NCBI GenBank assembly: GCA_000993205.1
Contig: LBVU01000002.1
Coordinates: 117,079-181,078 of the forward strand
Direction: 5' to 3'
Source: Candidatus Woesebacteria bacterium GW2011_GWB1_39_10
GTDB taxonomy: Bacteria > Patescibacteriota > Microgenomatia > UBA8517
Length of the DNA stretch: 64,000 nucleotides
The translations under genes and the position numbers were made by a program. This document shows, piece after piece, positions 42,963 to 55,726 of this stretch (its first letter is position 1; each line of letters begins with the position of its first letter). Below the pieces are notes generated by a model. The model searched no databases and was not told the origin of the DNA. It saw nothing but the letters and a program-made list of their open reading frames with translations.

Positions 42963-43586
42963 CTTTTTCACATTGACTTACATGGTACAATTATATTGAC
43001 CCTGTTAAAGAAGGATGCGGTCGGAATTTCCTGATCAAGTATATTCTAAAATGGGAGGACGGAGTCCGTTAAGTAATGCGCAAGCTAGCTTGATGGCAGT
43101 TCACCCACCTGGTTTTTCCAGGAATATCGCCGTACTTTTGATAGCAGGGTCACTTTTTTGCCTGAGAACAAAAACAGGGGTCAATCTTTTTCAAAACAAG
43201 GCACTTCGGCATTGTACAAGAGCGAAGTGCCAAAGAGGATATTATGCCTGTGTAAGTTTATTTAGGCTTTGGTTGCAGGAATCTCTGTCGGTGTACTGGG
43301 GAGGGAAGTTAGCTGTACTTGTTTTAATTGTACCTGCCTTTGCCTAGCTAATTCGGCGGTCCTGTAATCTAGAACTTTTTCCATATCTTGTTTGTTTTGA
43401 CCTTTCGGTTTTTTAATGGCCGTCTTGGACAGATCCGAAAGGGTTTGAGTACACCGAGGCGGCCATTTAAGATCTAAAAAGAAAATTTTTGTGTTTTTGG
43501 GTACAAAGGAATTCTCGCCGACACTTTGCGGAGGCGCAGGCTTTAGGCCGAGCCGGCCTGCCCTGCCGATCTGACTTCCATTTCAG

Positions 43587-43671
43587 TGCCAAGAGCAGGA
43601 TTCGAACCTACGTAGCCCTTCCGGGCGCCTGATTTACAGTCAAGTGCGTTTGACCACTCCGCCATCTTGGC
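43587..43671 (-). tRNA. tRNA-Tyr (anticodon GTA), class II with long variable arm
   Basis: Manual fold: acceptor GCCAAGA/TCTTGGC, anticodon loop CTGTAAA, variable hairpin GCCC-GGAA-GGGC, T-loop GGTTCGAATCC. Confidence 0.8.
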
Positions 43672-43673
43672 AT

Positions 43674-44306
43674 CTAATTCAAAAGGTCAGTAGCAATTAT
43701 ATCAATATCTAAAAGGATTTGCCTTAACAATCTGGTATCGTAATATCTTACATGGACAAGTCCGTACGGCATTTTCCCCACTTTTTCGGTTTTAAAATCT
43801 CTACGTACATATGGCTTAGAAAATTGTTTTTGAGGAATATTCAATTTCTCCGACCAGTATTCAATTAATTTGCCACTATTCTGATTGGAAAAACAGTAAA
43901 TATATACTCTCAATCGCTTTTCATTCACAAAGTAAATTTTTCTAAGCATTCTAGTAAATATTAAGAGCATTTTCTCGTTACTGTTAGCAAAATCGACAGC
44001 CGCTTTGTTTGCTTTTGACCCTTCGGCCCAGTATAGCGACAGCCCACTAATAAATAATTTTTGTAAGTTTATATCTAACTTATCTATTCTCTTAAAAGAC
44101 AGAGGGCTTCTCTCAAATTGAATTTTAATAGTTTCTGACGGTTTTCTTCTTTTGATTTTATTTCGCCTCATAAAACTAATAACTCTCCAAACAGAAATAT
44201 TATATTTCTGGGCAATTTCATTGGCACTCAAGCCGAACTTATTGTAAAGCTTCAATACATCAATCTTGTCAAGCATACCAGATCTATGGTATTCTCCACT
44301 TGCCAT
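43674..44306 (-). CDS. HTH DNA-binding protein, possibly LAGLIDADG-like homing endonuclease
   Basis: N-terminal HTH GLSANEIAQKYNISVWRVISFM; segment LFISGLSLYWAEGSK weakly resembles a LAGLIDADG motif; located between tRNA genes. Confidence 0.4.
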   Translation of the reverse strand: MASGEYHRSGMLDKIDVLKLYNKFGLSANEIAQKYNISVWRVISFMRRNKIKRRKPSETIKIQFERSPLSFKRIDKLDINLQKLFISGLSLYWAEGSKANKAAVDFANSNEKMLLIFTRMLRKIYFVNEKRLRVYIYCFSNQNSGKLIEYWSEKLNIPQKQFSKPYVRRDFKTEKVGKMPYGLVHVRYYDTRLLRQILLDIDIIATDLLN

Positions 44307-44402
44307 ACTGTCAACTATTCAAATTTGATATAATTCACACTACATGCAGGGATAAACAAGTTTCGTCTAACGACGTAAACAAAGTTTGTCCCAGCATTGC
44401 AT

Positions 44403-44474
44403 GCCGGGATAGCTCAACGGTGGAGCAACGCTTTTGTAAAGCGAAGGTTGAAGGTTCAAATCCTTTTCCCGGCT
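44403..44474 (+). tRNA. tRNA-Thr (anticodon TGT)
   Basis: Manual fold: acceptor GCCGGGA/TCCCGGC, D-arm GCTC..GAGC, anticodon loop TTTGTAA, T-loop GGTTCAAATCC. Confidence 0.7.
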
Positions 44475-44574
44475 CTTGGCAAACTTTCATTCCACCCACT
44501 CCGGCTGGGCAAAGTTTTGCATATAAACCGACTTCCATAACCACGTACACATTTTTTGGTATAATTGAGTCCGC

Positions 44575-44646
44575 GCCTGGGTAGCTCAGTGGTAGAGCAC
44601 CAACTTGGTAAGTTGGGGGTCGTGAGTTCAATCCTCACCTCAGGCT
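44575..44646 (+). tRNA. tRNA-Thr (anticodon GGT)
   Basis: Manual fold: acceptor GCCTGGG/CTCAGGC, D-arm GCTCAGTGGTAGAGC, anticodon stem CCAAC/GTTGG loop TTGGTAA, T-loop GAGTTCAATCCTCAC. Confidence 0.75.
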
Positions 44647-44666
44647 CAAAATGAAGTCTCAAAAAC

Positions 44667-45092
44667 TTACTTTTCCTCAATGGATCTCAAAACAACATAT
44701 TTGAGATCTCCTTCGTCGTCGTTCACCCTAACATAATCAACTCCGTGTATAACCGATTTCGCTCCCCATTCGTCCTTACCCCTCGGAGTTAGATTACCAT
44801 TTTGAAAAGTATGTTCAATTTGCATCAAAAGCTCTTTTGATTCTCCCGGTTTCCAAAGTGCTATATCAGCGTCAATTTCACCCTTCAAAAAAACCTGCTT
44901 CAAACTCTCGGCTATATTTTCAACCCTAGAACTATCTTTAACCGAGCCAACACCGCCGCTGGGCAATGTCACAGCTAAGGCCTCCGGGACTCTTAACCCC
45001 TCCTCCACAAAGACTTCATCTTTAACGGACACTTTTTTAAGCCATTCCGGGGTTGCCGTGTCAGACATATATTTATTGTATAACATGAACAT
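44667..45092 (-). CDS. hypothetical protein (141 aa)
   Basis: ORF only. Confidence 0.45.
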   Translation of the reverse strand: MFMLYNKYMSDTATPEWLKKVSVKDEVFVEEGLRVPEALAVTLPSGGVGSVKDSSRVENIAESLKQVFLKGEIDADIALWKPGESKELLMQIEHTFQNGNLTPRGKDEWGAKSVIHGVDYVRVNDDEGDLKYVVLRSIEEK

Positions 45093-45126
45093 TGCGGTAT
45101 TGCAAATTTAAGTATAAAATAGGCAC

Positions 45127-45312
45127 ATGGCAAAAAAGGGGGCGCGAGAACTTGTGAGCATGATTTGTTCCGTCTGTAAAAATCAAAATTACATTACAAA
45201 CAGGAATAAGGTAAATATGGATGTTAAAGGCAAAGGCAAGCTCCAAATCAAGAAATATTGTAAATTTTGCCGCAAATCTCAACTTCACAAAGAAAGCTCC
45301 AAACTAAAGTAA
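45127..45312 (+). CDS. rpmG: 50S ribosomal protein L33
   Basis: CSVCKNQNY...CKFCRK zinc-ribbon pattern and size typical of L33. Confidence 0.85.
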   Translation: MAKKGARELVSMICSVCKNQNYITNRNKVNMDVKGKGKLQIKKYCKFCRKSQLHKESSKLK

Positions 45313-45963
45313 GATTTTTTCTCCCAACTTCCGAGCCTCATTTTCAAAAAACCTAATCATCTTCTGCCTATCAAGTTTGATTTTCATTCTGGGAAAATCT
45401 TCCAATTCATTCACCTTGAGTAAGTTCTTGACCAACTCAACCTCAGAAATCTTAATATCAAACTTTATTCTGTGAAGATCCAACGCGCGTTTGAGCCTCC
45501 ATTTTTTACGCTTCGCGATTTCATACAAATCAATAAAATCGCGCGCTTTTTTACGAAGTAAAATTGTTTCAACCTTATTTGCATAAATATCTTTTATTGA
45601 ATCTATTTTGACTCCTCTGAAATAACTTGGTTTCCCGAGCTGTGGAAATGAATAATAGACAAAATCGATTATCAGCTCTTCTCCGTTATTCCACTTAAGC
45701 TTAAACCCGTTCACATTAGTTTTTAATCTTTCGATTGTTGTATAACCCAATTCCTTTTTGGAGCTAAAGATGAAGTTTGCAACATCGACAAAGGTGAATT
45801 CTTCCGTGGAAAAAAAATCCAAATCTTCGGAATATCGGTGATTTAAATAATAACCAGCAAGAGCGGTTCCACCGGTTAAATAGAAATTGCTAAATTTTTT
45901 GTTTTGACCAACCAATCCAAGTAGTTGCTTCTGTCTGGTTGTAAACCAGGTTCTTTTTTCCAT
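45304..45963 (-). CDS. AbiEii/AbiGii-family nucleotidyltransferase (type IV toxin-antitoxin / abortive infection toxin-like)
   Basis: FYLTGGTALAGYYLNHRYSEDLDFFS matches the DUF1814/AbiEii G-G...S-E-D-[IL]-D-F signature. Confidence 0.75.
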   Translation of the reverse strand: MEKRTWFTTRQKQLLGLVGQNKKFSNFYLTGGTALAGYYLNHRYSEDLDFFSTEEFTFVDVANFIFSSKKELGYTTIERLKTNVNGFKLKWNNGEELIIDFVYYSFPQLGKPSYFRGVKIDSIKDIYANKVETILLRKKARDFIDLYEIAKRKKWRLKRALDLHRIKFDIKISEVELVKNLLKVNELEDFPRMKIKLDRQKMIRFFENEARKLGEKILL

Positions 45964-46166
45964 TTTCTTCCCCATACCAGGAATTCTATCGCCTTTTTGG
46001 TATCAATATCCAGGTCTTCCGAAATCTTACCCCAATTTTTGATAATCTCTGCCCTTTTTACCCTTTCCCCACCGTAAGTTAAAGCCTGCTTTATCCTCCA
46101 AAGTTTGTATTCTTTAGGATTGTTTTTCCTAAATAATTTTTCGTCCGTGTTCCAATTTACGATCAT
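45876..46166 (-). CDS. hypothetical small protein upstream of and overlapping AbiEii-like gene (possible cognate partner)
   Basis: 97-aa ORF starting at MIVNW after removing the part antisense to tRNA-Trp; overlaps AbiEii ORF by about 88 nt in another frame. Confidence 0.35.
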   Translation of the reverse strand: MIVNWNTDEKLFRKNNPKEYKLWRIKQALTYGGERVKRAEIIKNWGKISEDLDIDTKKAIEFLVWGRKWKKEPGLQPDRSNYLDWLVKTKNLAISI

Positions 46167-46199
46167 ATGCCATGATATAATATCACCTAGAAGATAGAT

Positions 46200-46273
46200 A
46201 GGCTCGTGATGAAATGGTATCATAGCGGTCTCCAAAACCGCTCTTTCAGGTTCGAATCCTGACGGGCCTGCCA
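46200..46273 (+). tRNA. tRNA-Trp (anticodon CCA) with encoded 3' CCA
   Basis: Manual fold: acceptor AGGCTCG/CGGGCCT, D-arm ATGA..TCAT, anticodon stem GCGGT/ACCGC loop CTCCAAA, T-arm TCAGGTTCGAATCCTGA, discriminator G then CCA. Confidence 0.8.
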
Positions 46274-46344
46274 ACAAAGTTCGACTGTGTCCTTCTGAAG
46301 CTTTAGCGGAAGAGGATTCTATCCACCCCTGCAAGATAGCCTGC

Positions 46345-47289
46345 TTACTCTTTAATCCCCAATAACTCATTAACCTGAATATTTACTCCCCGGTGGTCTT
46401 TTATACTTACCCTGTAGCCATATTGAGTTTTGGTTCTCTCGAATAATTCGGGTCGAGTGAGATAAATTGGGACAATCATGTCTTGGATACACATTTTCCC
46501 GTCTCGTTTTTCTGACTCAGGTAAGACTCCGGGCAGATTTCTTCCAACACTGCGGGATATTGCAGAAAGTCTTTGAAGTTGTCTGTTCCGTGTTTCTAGC
46601 CCCTCAGAGACAAACTTGGCAAGTGGGTCAGTCGATTTCTCCAAAACCTGGACCATTTCCCTTGTAACTCCATGCTCCAACACCCCACCCCAATCATAAA
46701 GTAAGGTTTGCCCTGAATCTCGTAGATAATCTAAGGCAGCTCGGTCTTGTTTTGTATTAAAACTCATTCCTTGCCCTTCTACATCCTCCGCCGGAGCGGT
46801 GATTACTATTTCGGATATTTTCTCAGCTAACCCTTTTTCTTTTGCCAACCTGACAACTTCAGCAAAGTCTGTAAAAGCACCCAATCCAACAAGTGTGATT
46901 GGTTCGGGAGAATTAGAAAGCAATTCGACAACTCTCTGTACGGCCTCCAGGTTTGGTTTTCTCGCCTCAACCGCACCTTGAGCTATCGGTGGAATACCCT
47001 CGCCCCAAGCATCCCTTACCCTTGATAGCGAGTTATAACTCGTCCGACCATCCCCGTTATTTGTAAAAATTGACATTATAAATAATGGGTTTAGTTTTTG
47101 GTCTTTCGTGGCTGTTCGGATCATAAACAAGGCTAACCCATCATCTCTTTCCTGCGGAGCTTCTTTAATTCCACCAAAATATGCACCCGAAGTTATATCT
47201 GTGGAGATAATTAACCTTTTTCTTATTTCACGCTTAACTTCCGGGGTAATCTGTGATTCCTCAATCGGAATTTCACCAACCTCACCCAT
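46345..47289 (-). CDS. hypothetical protein (314 aa); weak resemblance to nucleoside hydrolase N-terminal Asp cluster
   Basis: ORF; LIISTDITSG...ERDDGLAL only loosely like DxDxxxDD of IU-nucleoside hydrolases. Confidence 0.45.
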   Translation of the reverse strand: MGEVGEIPIEESQITPEVKREIRKRLIISTDITSGAYFGGIKEAPQERDDGLALFMIRTATKDQKLNPLFIMSIFTNNGDGRTSYNSLSRVRDAWGEGIPPIAQGAVEARKPNLEAVQRVVELLSNSPEPITLVGLGAFTDFAEVVRLAKEKGLAEKISEIVITAPAEDVEGQGMSFNTKQDRAALDYLRDSGQTLLYDWGGVLEHGVTREMVQVLEKSTDPLAKFVSEGLETRNRQLQRLSAISRSVGRNLPGVLPESEKRDGKMCIQDMIVPIYLTRPELFERTKTQYGYRVSIKDHRGVNIQVNELLGIKE

Positions 47290-47416
47290 AACTACATTCT
47301 AACACCAACCCCGGAAATCCAAACTTGAAGAAGTTCCCTACATCGTTCATTAGCCCCTGCATAATAGGTACTGAATAGTACTTGACAAGACCTTTTTTAG
47401 GTACTAATATAGTACC

Positions 47417-47680
47417 ATGTCTAACACACAAGCAACACAGGTTAAGATAACTCTCCCAGACGAATTATATCTGCATCTTAGAAGTAGGGCTGAAAGGTTT
47501 GGTCTAAATTTGGCAGCTTACATTAGGAACCTTATTATTAACGATGTTAAGGGTGTTGATATTCCTGTTTTTAAAATGAGCGAAGAGAGAGAAAAAATAG
47601 CTTTAAAAGCGTTGAAAGATTATAAGAGCGGAAAAACCAAGGTGGTAGACAATCTAGATAACTATCTTGCCAACCTGTAA
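47417..47680 (+). CDS. ribbon-helix-helix (CopG/ParD-like) antitoxin
   Basis: KITLPDELYLHLRSRAERFGLNLAAYIRNLI is an RHH motif; 14-nt overlap with downstream toxin gene. Confidence 0.7.
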   Translation: MSNTQATQVKITLPDELYLHLRSRAERFGLNLAAYIRNLIINDVKGVDIPVFKMSEEREKIALKALKDYKSGKTKVVDNLDNYLANL

Positions 47681-47945
47681 GGAAATGAATATCAGGACTA
47701 CAACCTATTTTGACAAAAATCTCTCAAAGAAAATAAGAAAAAACCCTCAACTTAAAGCAAAAGTTAAAAAACAAATTGAACTATTAAGGGAAAATTTTCG
47801 TCATCCTTCCCTCAGACTTCACAAACTAACCGGAAAAAGAGCGCAGGAATATTCCTTCTGGATAGAAGGAAACTTAAGAATTACTTTTGTGATTATTGGT
47901 AATGCAATTCTGTTTACAGATATTATTACCCACGACGAATATTGA
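47667..47945 (+). CDS. RelE/ParE-family toxin
   Basis: HPSLRLHKLTGKRAQEYSFWIEGNLRITFVIIGNAILFTDIITHDEY matches the RelE/ParE C-terminal pattern. Confidence 0.7.
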   Translation: MPTCKEMNIRTTTYFDKNLSKKIRKNPQLKAKVKKQIELLRENFRHPSLRLHKLTGKRAQEYSFWIEGNLRITFVIIGNAILFTDIITHDEY

Positions 47946-47949
47946 TTTA

Positions 47950-48705
47950 TTAGGCTTTTGTCATCCCCAACTTTTTGGGCCAGGAGTCGCCCTTCGGAGT
48001 AATTACAAACATCATTCTTTTGTCAGTCACGGTACGGGGTTTGGAAGTTCCCCCAACTTTAATCTCGTTTGAATCCCACCAGCGCCTTTGAAAATCCTTG
48101 ATTCTAAATCTTCTATCCACCCCTGCGAACTTATGGAACGGGTCTGCAATCCGAATATAGCCCCGTTCTTTATCTACCCGAGTAATAACGCCGTAATGCC
48201 CATCGTCTTCGTCGGCGTCTTCATAAAATACCCCTTGCCACTCCACACCCACAGGAAACCTGTATTTATTTACAATTGCGTCCAAATCGCTGATTTTAGA
48301 ATTTGCCTTTTTCCAGAAAGAAAAACCCCCTTTGCCGGCTATTTTGGCGCCGCGCGCCAAATCTTTTATGCTCATTCCCCATTTCCTGATTTTCTTCTGC
48401 GCGCGGAGTGAGACTACAATCCTCTTCTGAAAAGTTTTAACACCCAAGAAAGAAAACAACATAGTGATCACCGCCGGCCCACAGCTATAAATATCAACCT
48501 GACGTAATCTTGACATGCCGGGAAACGCAACCCCGCGGATTCTGTCTTCTAAGGCTAAAAGACGTCTAATGACCTCCCGAATTGTCTTATTTGTATTGAT
48601 TTCCATTTGGCCCAATTGTACGGCCATTAAACAAATTTGTCTACTGAAGATTCTTGGCGTATTTGGAAAGAAGACTCCCCAAAGTTTCCGAAAATTCCAC
48701 GCCAT
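47950..48705 (-). CDS. papain-like cysteine peptidase/acyltransferase, peptidase C39-like fold
   Basis: RQVDIYSCGPAVITML (Q...CGxA) plus downstream DDGHYGVITRVD (His) resemble the C39 / BtrH-like catalytic arrangement. Confidence 0.55.
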   Translation of the reverse strand: MAWNFRKLWGVFFPNTPRIFSRQICLMAVQLGQMEINTNKTIREVIRRLLALEDRIRGVAFPGMSRLRQVDIYSCGPAVITMLFSFLGVKTFQKRIVVSLRAQKKIRKWGMSIKDLARGAKIAGKGGFSFWKKANSKISDLDAIVNKYRFPVGVEWQGVFYEDADEDDGHYGVITRVDKERGYIRIADPFHKFAGVDRRFRIKDFQRRWWDSNEIKVGGTSKPRTVTDKRMMFVITPKGDSWPKKLGMTKA

Positions 48706-49717
48706 TCATAGCCATTACTTCCGTCATTGGAAGACCCATATCTGGTCCGAATGCTGTATTGGGGTTACTATCAGTAAAATATGGAATGTGAGTGTTCTCG
48801 TCTACTCTAATATCAAACTTTGCATAATCTTTGTGTTGAAGACCTCCAAAGGCCCGTACAGCAAGTTTTTTAATTTCATACTTAAGACTTTCTTCTACAG
48901 GAACGTATTTATACGCTCTGGCATCTGAATACGATTCAAAACTTGTAAAAAAATGTTTGCCGTCAGGTCTTTTCCTGAATATTTTTTGCGCCATATAAAC
49001 GTGACGTTTGATATTGTCTTCAAAAACCACCACTGTTATTTCCGGACCGTCAATAAACTTTTCTACAATGACAGGAACTTTATATAGTGTAATCATGTTG
49101 TTAACCCTGAGTTTGGCGGCTCTGTCTGTTTCCTTTACTGCCGTGTCATTTATACCAACACTGCCACCACCCTCGTTCAATTTAACTATCAGAGGCAAAC
49201 CCAAATCTTCATCTATGTTTGTTCCGACACGCCTTATAAATTGAAACGGAGGTGTTGGAACATCGTAGGCCATGAGAAGTCTTTTTGTTAGATTGCGGTT
49301 GTTGCCAATAATAAGGCCTTCCATTCCCGCCCCGGTATATGGAATATTGGCAAGCTCAAGAGCCGCTGGGACCGACGGCTGAAGCTGATCCCGACCTTTT
49401 AAGGTGTCAACAAGATTAATGACCAAGTCCGGTCTATCTACCAACAAATTCGTATAAAAATATTGATCTCCGGGAAGGGTGCGTGTGGGAATTCCAAGCT
49501 TACGTACCTCCTCCGATACCTCTATCGCCCTCGCCTCCACTTCAATTTCCGCTTCGTAAGCGTCTTTTGTGGCAAAATTTTCCCGTTCAACAGAAGAATA
49601 TGCAACCACAACCAGCCGAAATTTTTTGAGAGCTTCTTTGTCTATAGACAAACGGATATTTTCCCTGGACGGAGATTTTTTTATTTCAACTTCTTCCTCA
49701 ACTTTGGCAGTGGGCAT
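48641..49717 (-). CDS. ATP-grasp enzyme of the D-alanine--D-alanine ligase family with atypical N-terminal region (start taken near MPTAKVEE)
   Basis: LIVKLNEGGGSVGI, IDGPEITVVVFED and C-terminal KFDIRVDENTHIPYFTDSNPNTAFGPDMGLPM parallel Ddl motifs. Confidence 0.7.
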   Translation of the reverse strand: MPTAKVEEEVEIKKSPSRENIRLSIDKEALKKFRLVVVAYSSVERENFATKDAYEAEIEVEARAIEVSEEVRKLGIPTRTLPGDQYFYTNLLVDRPDLVINLVDTLKGRDQLQPSVPAALELANIPYTGAGMEGLIIGNNRNLTKRLLMAYDVPTPPFQFIRRVGTNIDEDLGLPLIVKLNEGGGSVGINDTAVKETDRAAKLRVNNMITLYKVPVIVEKFIDGPEITVVVFEDNIKRHVYMAQKIFRKRPDGKHFFTSFESYSDARAYKYVPVEESLKYEIKKLAVRAFGGLQHKDYAKFDIRVDENTHIPYFTDSNPNTAFGPDMGLPMTEVMAMNGVEFSETLGSLLSKYAKNLQ

Positions 49718-49753
49718 ATACATATAGTAAAAGGTAAAAAGTAAAAGGTAAAG

Positions 49754-50194
49754 ATGTATAATTTTAGTATGAAGAAAAAGGTCTTGGTCGGCGGGTGTTT
49801 TGATATCCTCCACTATGGACATATTCATTTCCTTAAAAACGCCAGGGCGCTTGGCGATTACCTGGTAATTGCGCTGGAATCAGATAAAAATATAAAAAGG
49901 ATAAAGGGATCTTTCCGCCCTATTCATGATCAGGATAAAAGGCGCGAAATTCTTGAATCTTTAAATTTTGTAGATGAAGTAATAATTTTAAAAGACGAAA
50001 TGCAGGATAGCGACTATTTTGAGTTGGTTGACAGGGTGCGACCCTGTACAATCGCCGTAACTTCGGGAGATTCCATGATTGAAAAGAAAAAAGCTCATGC
50101 GGCAAAGGTCGGGGCCAAAGTCATTGAAATCCCCAAAATTGAGTCTGCCTCAACTTCCAAGATTACCAAACTGCTGGAACTGGAAACGTCATAG
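49754..50194 (+). CDS. cytidylyltransferase-like (HIGH-motif nucleotidyltransferase) small protein
   Basis: VLVGGCFDILHYGHIHFLKNA is the (H/T)xGH nucleotidyltransferase signature. Confidence 0.75.
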   Translation: MYNFSMKKKVLVGGCFDILHYGHIHFLKNARALGDYLVIALESDKNIKRIKGSFRPIHDQDKRREILESLNFVDEVIILKDEMQDSDYFELVDRVRPCTIAVTSGDSMIEKKKAHAAKVGAKVIEIPKIESASTSKITKLLELETS

Positions 50195-50249: not shown

Positions 50250-50741
50250 CTATTGAGACGCAGAAATTGTTACTTTCGAAGATTTTTCCTGGCTCGAAAT
50301 CTGTTTTTTCATATACTGTGCGCCCGTCAGGGTCCATTTTCCCGATTGGAAAATGTATGTATTGCCTTTTTGGTCGTAGCAAAAGTCTCCCACTTTATGC
50401 AGGGGAACACTGTTTGCAAATATTGTAGGCAAAACATATACCCCTGGCGTGCTCTCAACAAGAATCTTTATGCCGAGAGATGCAAACCCAAACTCCAATA
50501 CTTCAACCTCATCTTCCTCCCAAAAAAATCTGTCGCTGTATGGGCTATTTCCGCCGGACATTTCGGCCCACCCTTTAGACGAGCGTACGTAATAATTTCC
50601 ATCCTTGTCGATAACTGTATCAGAATCAACTCCCGTTACCTCCAAAATTCTTCCATCATGAAAAATTTGTTTTCTTGTTGGTTTTGAAAAAAATGGAGTG
50701 CCCGGAACCCATCTTTCTCTCTTTTTTCTTTTTCTGCCCAT
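50250..50741 (-). CDS. hypothetical protein with basic N-terminus (163 aa)
   Basis: ORF only. Confidence 0.4.
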   Translation of the reverse strand: MGRKRKKRERWVPGTPFFSKPTRKQIFHDGRILEVTGVDSDTVIDKDGNYYVRSSKGWAEMSGGNSPYSDRFFWEEDEVEVLEFGFASLGIKILVESTPGVYVLPTIFANSVPLHKVGDFCYDQKGNTYIFQSGKWTLTGAQYMKKQISSQEKSSKVTISASQ

Positions 50742-50890: not shown

Positions 50891-51124
50891 ATGGGTGAAT
50901 CCACTCAAACAGCACCAACGACAGTGACTGTAAAAGGCTCAAAAAAGTCCAGGCAAAGGCCATTGTTGACCCCGGATGAATTGGAAGCAATCAGGCTGAA
51001 CGACATCGAATGTAACAGTCGTCGAAAAGGCCATGCCGGGAAAACATGCCCAAATTGCGAAGCATTCAATTTGGCTGACCAGTATAAATGTCATACCTGT
51101 GGCTATGTTTTCGCCTGCCAGTGA
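50891..51124 (+). CDS. small zinc-ribbon protein (77 aa)
   Basis: CPNCEAFNLADQYKCHTCGY CxxC...CxxC pattern. Confidence 0.5.
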   Translation: MGESTQTAPTTVTVKGSKKSRQRPLLTPDELEAIRLNDIECNSRRKGHAGKTCPNCEAFNLADQYKCHTCGYVFACQ

Positions 51125-51339: not shown

Positions 51340-51597
51340 TTGAAAGAGATTAAATGCATCTGCAAACCGGAAGGCTCGGGATTAAACAAGAAATGCAAAC
51401 ACTGCCATCCAACGAGCAGATTACTCGCCAAACGTGAAGAGAAATGGTCCGCCAGAAAAGCCGGACATGACAAACATCGGTTGGCCGAAGATGTGCGGCG
51501 CGCAGCCAAAGGATATAAATTGGGAGAAATTCTCGCTGGTCACGGACCTGTCCAAGTCCCAGATCAAGAGGAAGAGGATTATGTCCCCCTCGCGTAA
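51340..51597 (+). CDS. small Cys/His-rich hypothetical protein (85 aa); an overlapping alternative-frame ORF at 51434-51712 makes the frame uncertain
   Basis: ORFs in track; CICKPEGSGLNKKCKHCH motif. Confidence 0.35.
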   Translation: MKEIKCICKPEGSGLNKKCKHCHPTSRLLAKREEKWSARKAGHDKHRLAEDVRRAAKGYKLGEILAGHGPVQVPDQEEEDYVPLA

Positions 51598-53905: not shown

Positions 53906-55726
53906 TTGATGGATTTTAAAACCAGATTTGATTCTCTGCCGGTACCCACCAAAAGGCTCCTTGGAATAGGTGTTGTTTTGGCCCTCGCAGTTGCTCTTCC
54001 CCTTTTTGTTTGGTCCATTATTACTCAAAGATTTCTAATCAATAAACGCGCCGCGTCCGGAGAGCCGGGTGTTTGTATCGCGCAAAATAAAATCATTATA
54101 GTTACCCCATCCTCAAACTCCAACGGAACCTGTCATGATATCCAAATGGCGATTAATGCGGTAACGGGAGAAGGATACACTGTTCAAATTGAGCCGGGAA
54201 TTTATAACATTGCTTCTACTATTAATGTAAGTGGAAAAACAACTATAAACATCACGGGTAATCCGCAGGCAGGTTCCGGCGCAACCGTCATAAACTCAAC
54301 TCCGGGTGGCGGTTGGGGTATTTTAGTAGAAAACTCGTCGGGAACGATTCAGTACCTGACAATGCAAGGAGGAAGTTCAAACGGAATGCTGAGTATTAAA
54401 AATAGCAACAATTTTTCGGTGGGATATGCAAACCTTAATTCTCAGACCTCTCATACCATGGACATTCAGGGTTCAAACACAATTAGTGTTTTTAATACAG
54501 AAATAACAAGCTCGGCCGGCGCGCTCGAAATCGGTGGATCAGCAAATATAAATATTTCGAATAATAAAATTCACAATTCCAATAATGCCATTGCAATCAA
54601 CAATTCATCCGGTGTTAGACTACTCGGTAATCTTATATACGGGAATCGTGAATCAGGCCTTGTTATTAACACCTATACGAATAATGTTAGGGATTTTAAG
54701 GCCATGCATAATACTTTCGTAAACAACGCTTTGGGCGGCAACACTATTCCAACCATATCTTTATTGGGAACATCCGGCCGCAATCTTGAATTCAGCAATA
54801 ATATAGTTTTGGGAGGCTTGGGGGCAGGGATTGGCTCCAAAAATCGTTTGCTTTTTAACACTTTTACTCTCAACGATATTTTTGGAAATACTCCAAATTA
54901 CGAGAGATATCCAAATCAAACCGGCAGGAGCGGGAACATTTCAAAAGACCCGCTTTTGAATAGCAACAACTTTATTTACTGCCCCTCACCCGCATCTCCC
55001 GTAGTTTATGGAAATATCGCAAACGGCAAATACATGGGCTATATCGGGCCCTGCGGAACATCAACCCCGCCACCGACTCCGACTCCATCTCCTACCCCAA
55101 CCGGATATCCGAGTCCGACACCGACTACGACGCCGACTGCTGTGCCGTCAGGAACGCCGGGAACAACTCCTCCCCCAACCGTAAGGCCTTTTCAAATTCT
55201 ATTTAAGTTTGATGGTGTAACAGACGGCTCGGCGGCAACCTCGGGTGCCACCGTCCGGTTTAGAGGAGGTCCAAATGGTTCCATTGACTTGATAACACCC
55301 ACAATTCCAACGACTTATATTGGCAGCGGAATCTATCAACTATATTTTGCAACGAATTTGCCTGACGATACCAACTACTCGGTTTCATTAAAAGGAGAAA
55401 AACACCTTGCAATTAGATTTTGCTACCCAAGCGAACAAACTACTTATTGTTCAGATAGTCAAGGACACATTGGTGTTTACAACGCTTCCGGTCCTGAGAA
55501 TTTGGACTTTACAGGAATTCCTCTTCCTGCAGGCGACACATACCCGCAAGACGGAGTTGTCAATTCTACCGACTACGACAGAGTAAGAAGTTTATTTAGC
55601 AAACCGGATTCCGAATTAACAACTACTGACAAACTTGTAGGCGATCTTAATTACGATGGGTTCATCGATATCCGAGACTCATTCCTGATTAGGAAAACAT
55701 TAGGAACCAGATACGATGAAAGCTAA
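53906..55726 (+). CDS. secreted right-handed parallel beta-helix protein with Pro/Thr linker and C-terminal dockerin-like module
   Basis: N-terminal signal/TM; repeated N-x-G/I-x-N beta-helix rungs; PPPTPTPSPTPTGYPSPTPTTTPT linker; two Ca-binding-loop-like repeats DGVVNSTDYDRVRSLF and DLNYDGFIDIRDSFLIRKTLG. Confidence 0.65.
   Translation: MMDFKTRFDSLPVPTKRLLGIGVVLALAVALPLFVWSIITQRFLINKRAASGEPGVCIAQNKIIIVTPSSNSNGTCHDIQMAINAVTGEGYTVQIEPGIYNIASTINVSGKTTINITGNPQAGSGATVINSTPGGGWGILVENSSGTIQYLTMQGGSSNGMLSIKNSNNFSVGYANLNSQTSHTMDIQGSNTISVFNTEITSSAGALEIGGSANINISNNKIHNSNNAIAINNSSGVRLLGNLIYGNRESGLVINTYTNNVRDFKAMHNTFVNNALGGNTIPTISLLGTSGRNLEFSNNIVLGGLGAGIGSKNRLLFNTFTLNDIFGNTPNYERYPNQTGRSGNISKDPLLNSNNFIYCPSPASPVVYGNIANGKYMGYIGPCGTSTPPPTPTPSPTPTGYPSPTPTTTPTAVPSGTPGTTPPPTVRPFQILFKFDGVTDGSAATSGATVRFRGGPNGSIDLITPTIPTTYIGSGIYQLYFATNLPDDTNYSVSLKGEKHLAIRFCYPSEQTTYCSDSQGHIGVYNASGPENLDFTGIPLPAGDTYPQDGVVNSTDYDRVRSLFSKPDSELTTTDKLVGDLNYDGFIDIRDSFLIRKTLGTRYDES

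Follow-up and report, generated by a model that had tools for sequence, protein, structure and literature searches.

A Ddl-fold ATP-grasp ligase and a C39-like cysteine enzyme form a conserved gene pair in Microgenomates and Chloroflexota

The 64,000-nucleotide stretch of Candidatus Woesebacteria bacterium GW2011_GWB1_39_10 analysed here (contig LBVU01000002.1, positions 117,079 to 181,078 of the forward strand; hereafter the window) carries on its minus strand a gene for a Ddl-fold ATP-grasp ligase (48641..49717, 358 amino acids) followed by one for a C39-like papain-fold cysteine enzyme (47950..48606, 218 amino acids), while an HxGH nucleotidyltransferase gene (49754..50194, plus strand, 146 amino acids) is transcribed divergently from the ligase gene. 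A first-pass annotation had proposed the three as a candidate ligation module, and all three are indeed intact, with the Ddl-like C-terminal match, the Gln/Cys/His arrangement of C39 peptidases and the HxGH nucleotidyltransferase recovered both as Pfam matches and as motifs. Only the first two form a unit: the ATP-grasp and C39-like genes are genuinely paired in function and may plausibly constitute a ligation module. By analogy with known couples, and with a probability of about 40%, we propose that they encode a synthetase together with an amidase or transpeptidase, and that both work on an amide of non-ribosomal origin in a cytoplasmic metabolite or small peptide.

Homologous loci were collected with the C39-like family as query, in a search of a single genome for each GTDB species; at least 80 exist, and the counts given here refer to the 80 listed. 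They derive from Microgenomates (Woesebacteria, Gottesmanbacteria, Shapirobacteria, Roizmanbacteria and Pacebacteria, among others) and from Chloroflexota (Anaerolineales, Promineifilaceae and Longilinea). In 77 of the 80, the gene immediately upstream, in the same orientation, encodes an ATP-grasp protein of one and the same family, which scores above 450 bits with the family hidden Markov model (HMM) wherever the gene is complete. A contig end truncates one of the remaining three loci, and the other two, with unrelated contexts, contain the most divergent C39 homologues. In most loci outside the window's clade the genes overlap by 17-35 nucleotides (at least 70 loci tabulated), whereas within that clade they stand 6-67 nucleotides apart and the C39-like protein has an extra N-terminal helix of about 26 residues; in the window itself a spacer of 34 nucleotides (48607..48640, minus strand, read from the sequence) separates the ligase stop codon from the start codon of its partner. 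The divergences of the two proteins co-vary (Spearman rho 0.86, n=69). Ligase orthologues in the 77 loci are 52-95% identical, and clustering of the core family at 50% gives about two full-length clusters; across the two phyla the identity is 52-70% for the ligase, which has about 70 invariant positions, and 31-47% for the partner. Adjacency in 77 of 80 genomes over two phyla, overlapping reading frames and co-varying divergence together support the functional pair, and weak additional support for coupling comes from P0362, a metagenomic protein that holds both domains (ligase 440 bits, residues 1-321; C39-like 151 bits, residues 328-515). No description of such a pair was found in a literature search; the combination, as the first-pass annotation had stated, is not a described operon.

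Two C39-like genes stand in tandem behind one ATP-grasp gene at a single locus (L041, 7352-8621), the only such duplication among the 80 listed. The taxonomy of several records appears unreliable: third-party annotation entries for metagenome-assembled genomes (MAGs) named 'uncultured Gammaproteobacteria' or 'Pseudomonadales' carry a Microgenomates-type locus within Microgenomates-like synteny (L009, L012, L014-L018, L028, L029, L037, L041, L042 and others), and L078, recorded as 'Bacteroidota', carries the Anaerolineales type of locus.

The nucleotidyltransferase does not share this constancy. Its motif reads HYGH, it matches CTP_transf_like at 3.5e-15 and is closest to domain II of RfaE and to TagD, scoring 110 bits with the rfaE_dom_II model against a cut-off of 181.5 and passing the generic cyt_tran_rel domain model. 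Within the window's own clade the divergent arrangement is kept, which might suggest that the cytidylyltransferase activates a substrate for the ligase and peptidase; yet all 14 loci in which it adjoins the pair belong to that clade, and it is not adjacent in the other 66, which include all Chloroflexota and most other Microgenomates lineages. In two loci (L001 and L002) it is found instead about 4 nucleotides upstream of a guanylate kinase gene, in the same orientation. A module of three genes is thus hardly credible, the third member reflecting clade-specific synteny, and what survives of the proposed module is the two-gene pair.

The similarity of the ATP-grasp protein to Ddl is one of fold. 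The open reading frame (ORF) 48641-49828 matches Pfam Dala_Dala_lig_C (3.3e-16), but its scores with the NCBIfam Ddl models are below 40% of the family cut-offs (PRK01372, 94.9 bits vs. 243; TIGR01205, 92.1 bits vs. 245.65). The nearest solved structures by sequence are Ddl enzymes (about 1e-15), and a Foldseek search with the predicted structure returned Ddl enzymes for all top 50 matches, with 330-350 aligned columns and template-modeling (TM) scores of 0.6-0.77, the model being mediocre (predicted local distance difference test, pLDDT, 64, from a shallow alignment) and its substrate loops too poor for the pocket to be read. The extent of the structural alignment also bears on the N-terminal region, which had been described as replaced by an acidic segment. 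It is not: the alignment to the NCBIfam Ddl model begins at residue 103 of the 395-residue ORF, corresponding to model position 29, and the Ddl N-domain fold is retained, with an 11-residue insert and with a variable charged tail added ahead of it. This Glu/Lys-rich tail (approximately residues 1-30, 49628..49717, minus strand), to which the acidic segment of the first-pass annotation corresponds, was delimited by homologue comparison and model confidence, pLDDT falling below 50 for residues 1-18; it varies in length and sequence, is absent from some homologues and has no conservation across phyla.

Residues of 21 family members were mapped onto Escherichia coli DdlB, the functional roles of whose residues are established. 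The nucleotide and Mg2+ residues K144, E180, E187, D257, E270 (as D) and N272 in DdlB numbering are kept in all 21; their counterparts in the window protein, the codon positions of which were checked, are K179 (49181-49183), E219, E226, D302 (48812-48814), D316 (48770-48772) and N318 (48764-48766), and these are invariant in the family. Residues that bind D-alanine are, by contrast, substituted in every one of the 21 members (H63K, E68L, S150G, Y216S, R255K, S281M/K/L and L282G), giving K107, L112, G185, S262, K300 and M327/G328 in the window protein, while the position of DdlB E15 is occupied by E or Q. The ligase therefore resembles Ddl in its three-domain fold and in its ATP/Mg2+ residues, but judged from these positions it is most probably not a D-Ala-D-Ala ligase. 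An ordinary Ddl lying beside an unrelated gene would agree with that fold and with the label D-alanine-D-alanine ligase that JGI gives to homologues; nevertheless, scores of 92-95 bits against cut-offs of 243-246, the loss of S150, Y216, S281 and others, and an obligate pairing with a cysteine peptidase gene, in place of the company of mur genes, leave this explanation next to no likelihood. A C-terminal WPKKLGM motif was considered as a substrate of the ligase and discarded, being conserved only in the window's clade and not across phyla.

A Ddl paralogue could nonetheless serve peptidoglycan-precursor chemistry by making an alternative dipeptide or attaching a branch residue to the stem peptide, in the manner of VanA or D-aspartate ligase, with the peptidase editing the normal or modified precursor according to the logic of VanA and VanX. 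Modest support for this comes from two sides. The first is a motif, RTAACYC-N14-C(A/C)CGTTA, with the AAC-N16-CGT spacing typical of promoters of extracytoplasmic function (ECF) sigma factors, which is found in one Anaerolineales clade (L057, L063, L066, L068, L071, L075-L078, L082 and L083) about 90-110 nucleotides upstream of the ATP-grasp start in most loci and about 42 in L077; it is followed by a GC-rich leader hairpin and is kept although the sequence further upstream differs among loci, but is absent from Microgenomates. The second is a further Ddl-like ATP-grasp of about 340 amino acids, whose gene closely follows the pair in 12 loci of Microgenomates (L003 12204-13238, L004, L008, L010, L014, L016, L020, L024-L026, L028 and L029), though not present in the window. 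This second family retains S150, K215, R255 and S281, has E15Q, H63E, Y216W and L282Y, and reaches 184 bits, the Ddl cut-off being 243. It occurs, however, also in an Aenigmarchaeota genome (L087 12724-13746, 357 bits), about 6 kb from a sister of the window ligase, and Aenigmarchaeota are not expected to make murein; we consider a role of the pair in peptidoglycan synthesis improbable.

Tandem ATP-grasp proteins of 600-800 amino acids exist, and they are not fusions of the window family with the second one, as both halves score higher with the second-family HMM. The Aenigmarchaeota sister (L087 5431-8888, GCA_026414305.1; 283 bits to the family HMM) has no C39 partner and is encoded close upstream of, and co-oriented with, a 451-residue protein of no assigned family and a ThiF/E1-like protein; another sister ligase, in L089, directly follows a further Ddl-like gene.

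The partner of the ligase looks like an active enzyme, judged from its residues. It matches Pfam Peptidase_C39 (PF03412) with 25-25.6 bits against a gathering score of 22, and its catalytic set consists of Gln36 (48499-48501), Cys42 (48481-48483, within YSCGPA), His137 (48196-48198, within DGHYG) and Asp155 (48142-48144), all invariant across 35 members from both phyla and invariant or nearly so in 35-70 homologues. Also invariant in the 35 are the signature PVGVEWQGxF (residues 118-127), Q60, K100 and W176, while D134, D178 and N180 are nearly so, the motif WWDxN covering residues 176-180; an acidic loop precedes the catalytic His. A Pfam census of these members gave Peptidase_C39 in 35, C39_2 in 34, Phytochelatin (PF05023) in 15, weakly (best E 6.7e-4), C70 in six and BtrH_N in none, so that each profile suggested by the first-pass annotation, including Dala_Dala_lig_C and CTP_transf_like for the other two genes, was recovered except BtrH_N. 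No N-terminal hydrophobic segment was seen by inspection, and the protein is therefore probably cytoplasmic. A phmmer search against solved structures gave no sequence match at E<=1, and the family profile found a single, marginal one in PDB (22oc, 'P210 CD lyase', E 0.094), on which no paper was found. The proteins used for comparison were pseudomurein endoisopeptidase PeiR, the peptidase domains of ComA and PCAT1, the phytochelatin-synthase-like Nostoc Alr0975 and 3erv, a stand-alone C39_2 protein. The family shows the PF03412 match and the Gln/Cys/His/Asp set of C39 peptidases (35 of 35 members), but it has motifs of its own in PVGVEWQGxF, WWDxN and the acidic loop, and differs from the double-glycine leader peptidases of PCAT transporters, such as ComA and PCAT1, in being apparently cytoplasmic and stand-alone, with neither an ABC transporter nor a gene for a double-glycine-leader substrate. 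The likeness to Alr0975 (family C83) is limited by the weakness of the sequence matches; pairing with a ligase is not a feature of phytochelatin synthases, and no evidence of glutathione metabolism was found in the lineages with the pair. In databases homologues carry the labels 'hypothetical', 'D-alanine-D-alanine ligase' or 'C39 domain-containing'.

The C39 assignment, together with the known co-occurrence of ATP-grasp and C39 proteins in microviridins, would suit the maturation of a ribosomally synthesised and post-translationally modified peptide (RiPP), in which an ATP-grasp macrocyclase and a double-glycine leader peptidase cooperate as in graspetides, a parallel that the first-pass annotation had drawn. 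The neighbourhood speaks against it. The candidate precursors do not accompany the pair: of the 80 loci, none has the 163-residue ORF at 50250-50741, one has the zinc-ribbon gene (50891-51124) and three have the ORF at 51340-51597. Among ORFs of 20-110 amino acids within 700 nucleotides of the pair in more than 70 loci none was conserved, apart from antisense shadows of conserved genes, and no ABC transporter lies beside the pair in six annotated neighbourhoods. The ligase, moreover, is of the Ddl type, and the pair is kept in genomes of about 1 Mb over two phyla in variable contexts: clustering of all neighbouring ORFs gave no other widely conserved gene, and the Chloroflexota neighbourhoods are unrelated to one another. 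A RiPP pathway is accordingly a most improbable setting.

A parallel with BtrJ/BtrH of butirosin biosynthesis had likewise been suggested, and these proteins, like CtaD/CtaG of closthioamide biosynthesis, do bring a ligase of the ATP-grasp type and a cysteine enzyme of clan CA together for amide assembly (PMC7183216). Carrier proteins are, however, encoded in 95% of CtaD-type loci (PMC7183216), whereas the 3612 ORFs of the 80 loci contain no phosphopantetheine site (PS00012), six annotated neighbourhoods contain no PP-binding Pfam domain, and BtrH_N is missing from all 35 members of the C39-like family; the analogy in its specific form does not hold. One could still envisage a carrier-free acyl relay or polymerising transpeptidase, in which the ATP-grasp enzyme stores the energy of ATP in an amide or hands over an acyl-phosphate, and Cys42 passes the acyl group from its thioester on to the amine of an acceptor, so that an oligomer grows or a group is grafted, as phytochelatin synthase does with glutathione and BtrH or CtaG with carrier-bound acyl groups. 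The missing BtrH_N domain and carrier count against such a relay too, as do the weakness of the Phytochelatin matches and the lack of a known acceptor, and we regard it as unlikely.

A riboswitch that precedes the pair was found neither in the window nor in eight Chloroflexota loci; a SAM (S-adenosylmethionine) riboswitch (77 bits) situated just downstream of the C39-like gene in L054 (8735-8861) presumably acts on the gene that follows it and has no connection with the pair. PADLOC gave no match for the five proteins tested, and searches for plasmid or phage homologues found none for the C39-like protein and only one plasmid match, Ddl-like and 29% identical, for the ligase. A defence or mobile origin was discarded on the PADLOC result and on the lack of plasmid or phage homologues of the C39-like protein.

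The best-documented parallel for the proposed synthetase and amidase or transpeptidase couple is trypanothione synthetase-amidase (TryS), which holds a papain-like amidase and an ATP-grasp synthetase for the same amide bond in one protein (PMC2427367). TryS, like the glutathionylspermidine synthetase/amidase of E. coli (GspSA), links an ATP-grasp C:N ligase physically to an amidase of the papain fold with Cys, His and Asp, a coupling that here takes the form of genes that are adjacent and, in most loci outside the window's clade, overlapping; like the pair as we read it, these systems are cytoplasmic and work with neither a carrier protein nor a ribosomal precursor. That the amidase acts on the product of its own ligase is a property of GspSA and TryS which, for the window pair, we put forward as a proposal. 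GspSA differs in being a single polypeptide with the amidase first, whereas the window has two genes with the ligase first, an order also seen in P0362; and the window proteins have no Pfam match to CHAP or GSP_synth, but match C39/C39_2 and Dala_Dala_lig_C.

Read as such a couple, the two minus-strand genes would produce a self-contained, co-translated two-enzyme unit. The Ddl fold and the intact ATP/Mg2+ site lead us to expect that the ligase activates a carboxylate as an acyl-phosphate and then joins it to an amine; because both the donor and the acceptor pocket are remodelled, its substrates would be other than D-alanine and its product would not be D-Ala-D-Ala. The intact Gln/Cys/His/Asp site of the C39-like enzyme would in turn form a thioester acyl-enzyme from an amide or ester: Cys42 would attack the amide, and the acyl group would then be hydrolysed, as in an amidase, or passed to another amine, as in a transpeptidase. 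Overlapping genes, co-variation and the lack of a third partner suggest that both enzymes act on the same compound, in which case the pair would form one non-ribosomal amide bond and then either cleave it again or redistribute it. This chemistry, the direction in which the cysteine enzyme works and the class of the substrate are what we infer from the residues and the comparisons above. A cationic amine as substrate, for example a polyamine or a compound containing lysine or ornithine, is no more than hinted at by invariant Trp, Asp and Glu residues and by the acidic loop near the active site of the cysteine enzyme.

Several observations weigh against this interpretation. Neither of the two is closely homologous to a characterised protein, the C39-like one lacking even a PDB match by phmmer at the threshold given above, and the substrate loops of the ligase model (pLDDT 64) are too poor to define its pocket. 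The analogy to GspSA and TryS is architectural only, the amidase being of the C39 and not the CHAP type and the synthetase of the Ddl and not the GSP_synth type. P0362 may be a frameshift artefact, since it forms a single-member cluster from one 2.2-kb contig and its three nearest metagenome relatives are unfused, encoded by separate overlapping genes. Finally, a coupled futile cycle needs regulation, of which no sign was seen.

Other divisions of labour between the two enzymes are conceivable. Overlapping genes imply a 1:1 complex, and pairs of a cysteine hydrolase with an ATP-dependent ligase are a common amidotransferase design, exemplified by CarA/CarB and GatD/MurT; the C39-like enzyme might therefore free ammonia or an amine from a donor and feed it to the ATP-grasp enzyme. 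It has, however, no similarity to glutaminase families, Pfam assigning it to C39 and C39_2, and there is no evidence of a channel, which makes this arrangement very unlikely. Alternatively, the ligase might write a protein tag by adding one or more amino acids to a C-terminus or side chain, and the cysteine peptidase erase it. RimK, TTL and LysX are writers of this kind, and vasohibin removes the tyrosine of tubulin. A conserved macromolecular substrate would fit the cross-phylum conservation of the ligase, with its approximately 70 invariant positions and 52-70% identity while the partner drifts to 31-47%; the acidic loop by the catalytic His would suit a basic protein, and the Aenigmarchaeota sister ligase lies close upstream of a co-oriented ThiF/E1-like gene. 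The argument from conservation is indirect, though, no candidate substrate gene is linked to the pair, and the ATP-grasp is of the Ddl type and not of the RimK or TTL type, so that we judge a writer and eraser rather improbable. More speculative is a carrier-free, E1/E2-like amide-forming machine, in which the Ddl-fold subunit would activate a carboxylate and Cys42 would capture the acyl group and transfer it to an amine of a macromolecule, be it a protein, a cell-wall precursor or a growing peptide. We treat this as a long shot; if true, it would represent an unrecognised tagging or template-free polymerising system common to Microgenomates, members of the candidate phyla radiation (CPR), and Anaerolineae.

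The pair is an ATP-grasp ligase with a papain-fold partner, a known sort of couple in a version, Ddl-type with C39-type, that is new, and it would extend the short list formed by GspSA/TryS, BtrJ/BtrH and CtaD/CtaG. It is kept across many ultra-small groundwater bacteria and in Chloroflexi. With about 1 Mb, CPR genomes retain few enzymes, and a unit of two that persists over Microgenomates lineages and recurs in Anaerolineae therefore probably serves a need of these cells. The label D-alanine-D-alanine ligase, often given to the ligase, can lead to false calls of a 'complete peptidoglycan pathway' in reconstructions of CPR and Chloroflexota metabolism. Both proteins are small and apparently soluble, and an orthologue is present in a MAG assigned to Longilinea, a genus with cultured members, which would make the pair directly testable.

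Gene starts were chosen from homologue lengths and alignments. The ligase gene, whose long ORF extends to 49828, most likely starts at 49717, which gives the length of most homologues, and the C39-like gene most likely starts at 48606 rather than 48705, its product beginning MEINTNK. The region 47950-50187 is colinear with the chromosome of the closest relative (CP066686.1, locus L006) at 81.5% nucleotide identity, as against 95% identity of the ATP-grasp protein, a contrast in keeping with an active enzyme, and the GC content of the three-gene region equals that of the rest of the window. In related genomes the order Wzy_C, GDP-mannose dehydratase, cytidylyltransferase, ATP-grasp, C39-like recurs, the block lying near NusG, RNase HII and ribosomal-protein genes. 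The first-pass annotation had placed the genes in an accessory segment next to toxin-antitoxin genes; the pair itself stands in core synteny, and it is only the toxin-antitoxin flank (45313-47949) that varies with respect to the closest relative. This flank contains AbiEii, tRNA-Trp, a nucleoside-hydrolase-like gene and a ribbon-helix-helix (RHH)/YafQ-like pair.

The last of these (47417-47945, plus strand) consists of an RHH-type gene with a weak NikA-like match overlapping a YafQ-like toxin gene (25 bits, cut-off 30); it is convergent with the C39-like gene, ends 4 nucleotides from its stop codon and, not being present in the closest relative, is probably a recent insertion. In that relative the 3' end of the C39-like gene (window 47955-48027) recurs about 1 kb downstream (L006 9661-9732) as a 73-bp copy of 92% identity, which resembles a target duplication caused by insertion at the gene end. 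The AbiEii toxin gene (45304-45975) scores 60 bits, and the ORF upstream of it overlaps tRNA-Trp on the opposite strand; an rpmG (L33)-like gene at 45127-45312 was recognised by eye. The nucleoside-hydrolase-like gene (46345-47289, minus strand; IU_nuc_hydro, 34.3 bits vs. a Pfam threshold of 34.2) was found in none of the 80 related loci. Over 43586-46370 tRNA genes (Tyr, two Thr and Trp) are interspersed with variable genes, with the appearance of an integration hot spot. Further along the plus strand, 53906-55726 encodes a protein of 606 amino acids in which a hydrophobic segment at the N-terminus and a dockerin-like domain at the C-terminus (22.3 bits vs. 22.9) flank a right-handed beta-helix region and a long linker rich in Pro and Thr; it is probably secreted or exposed at the cell surface.

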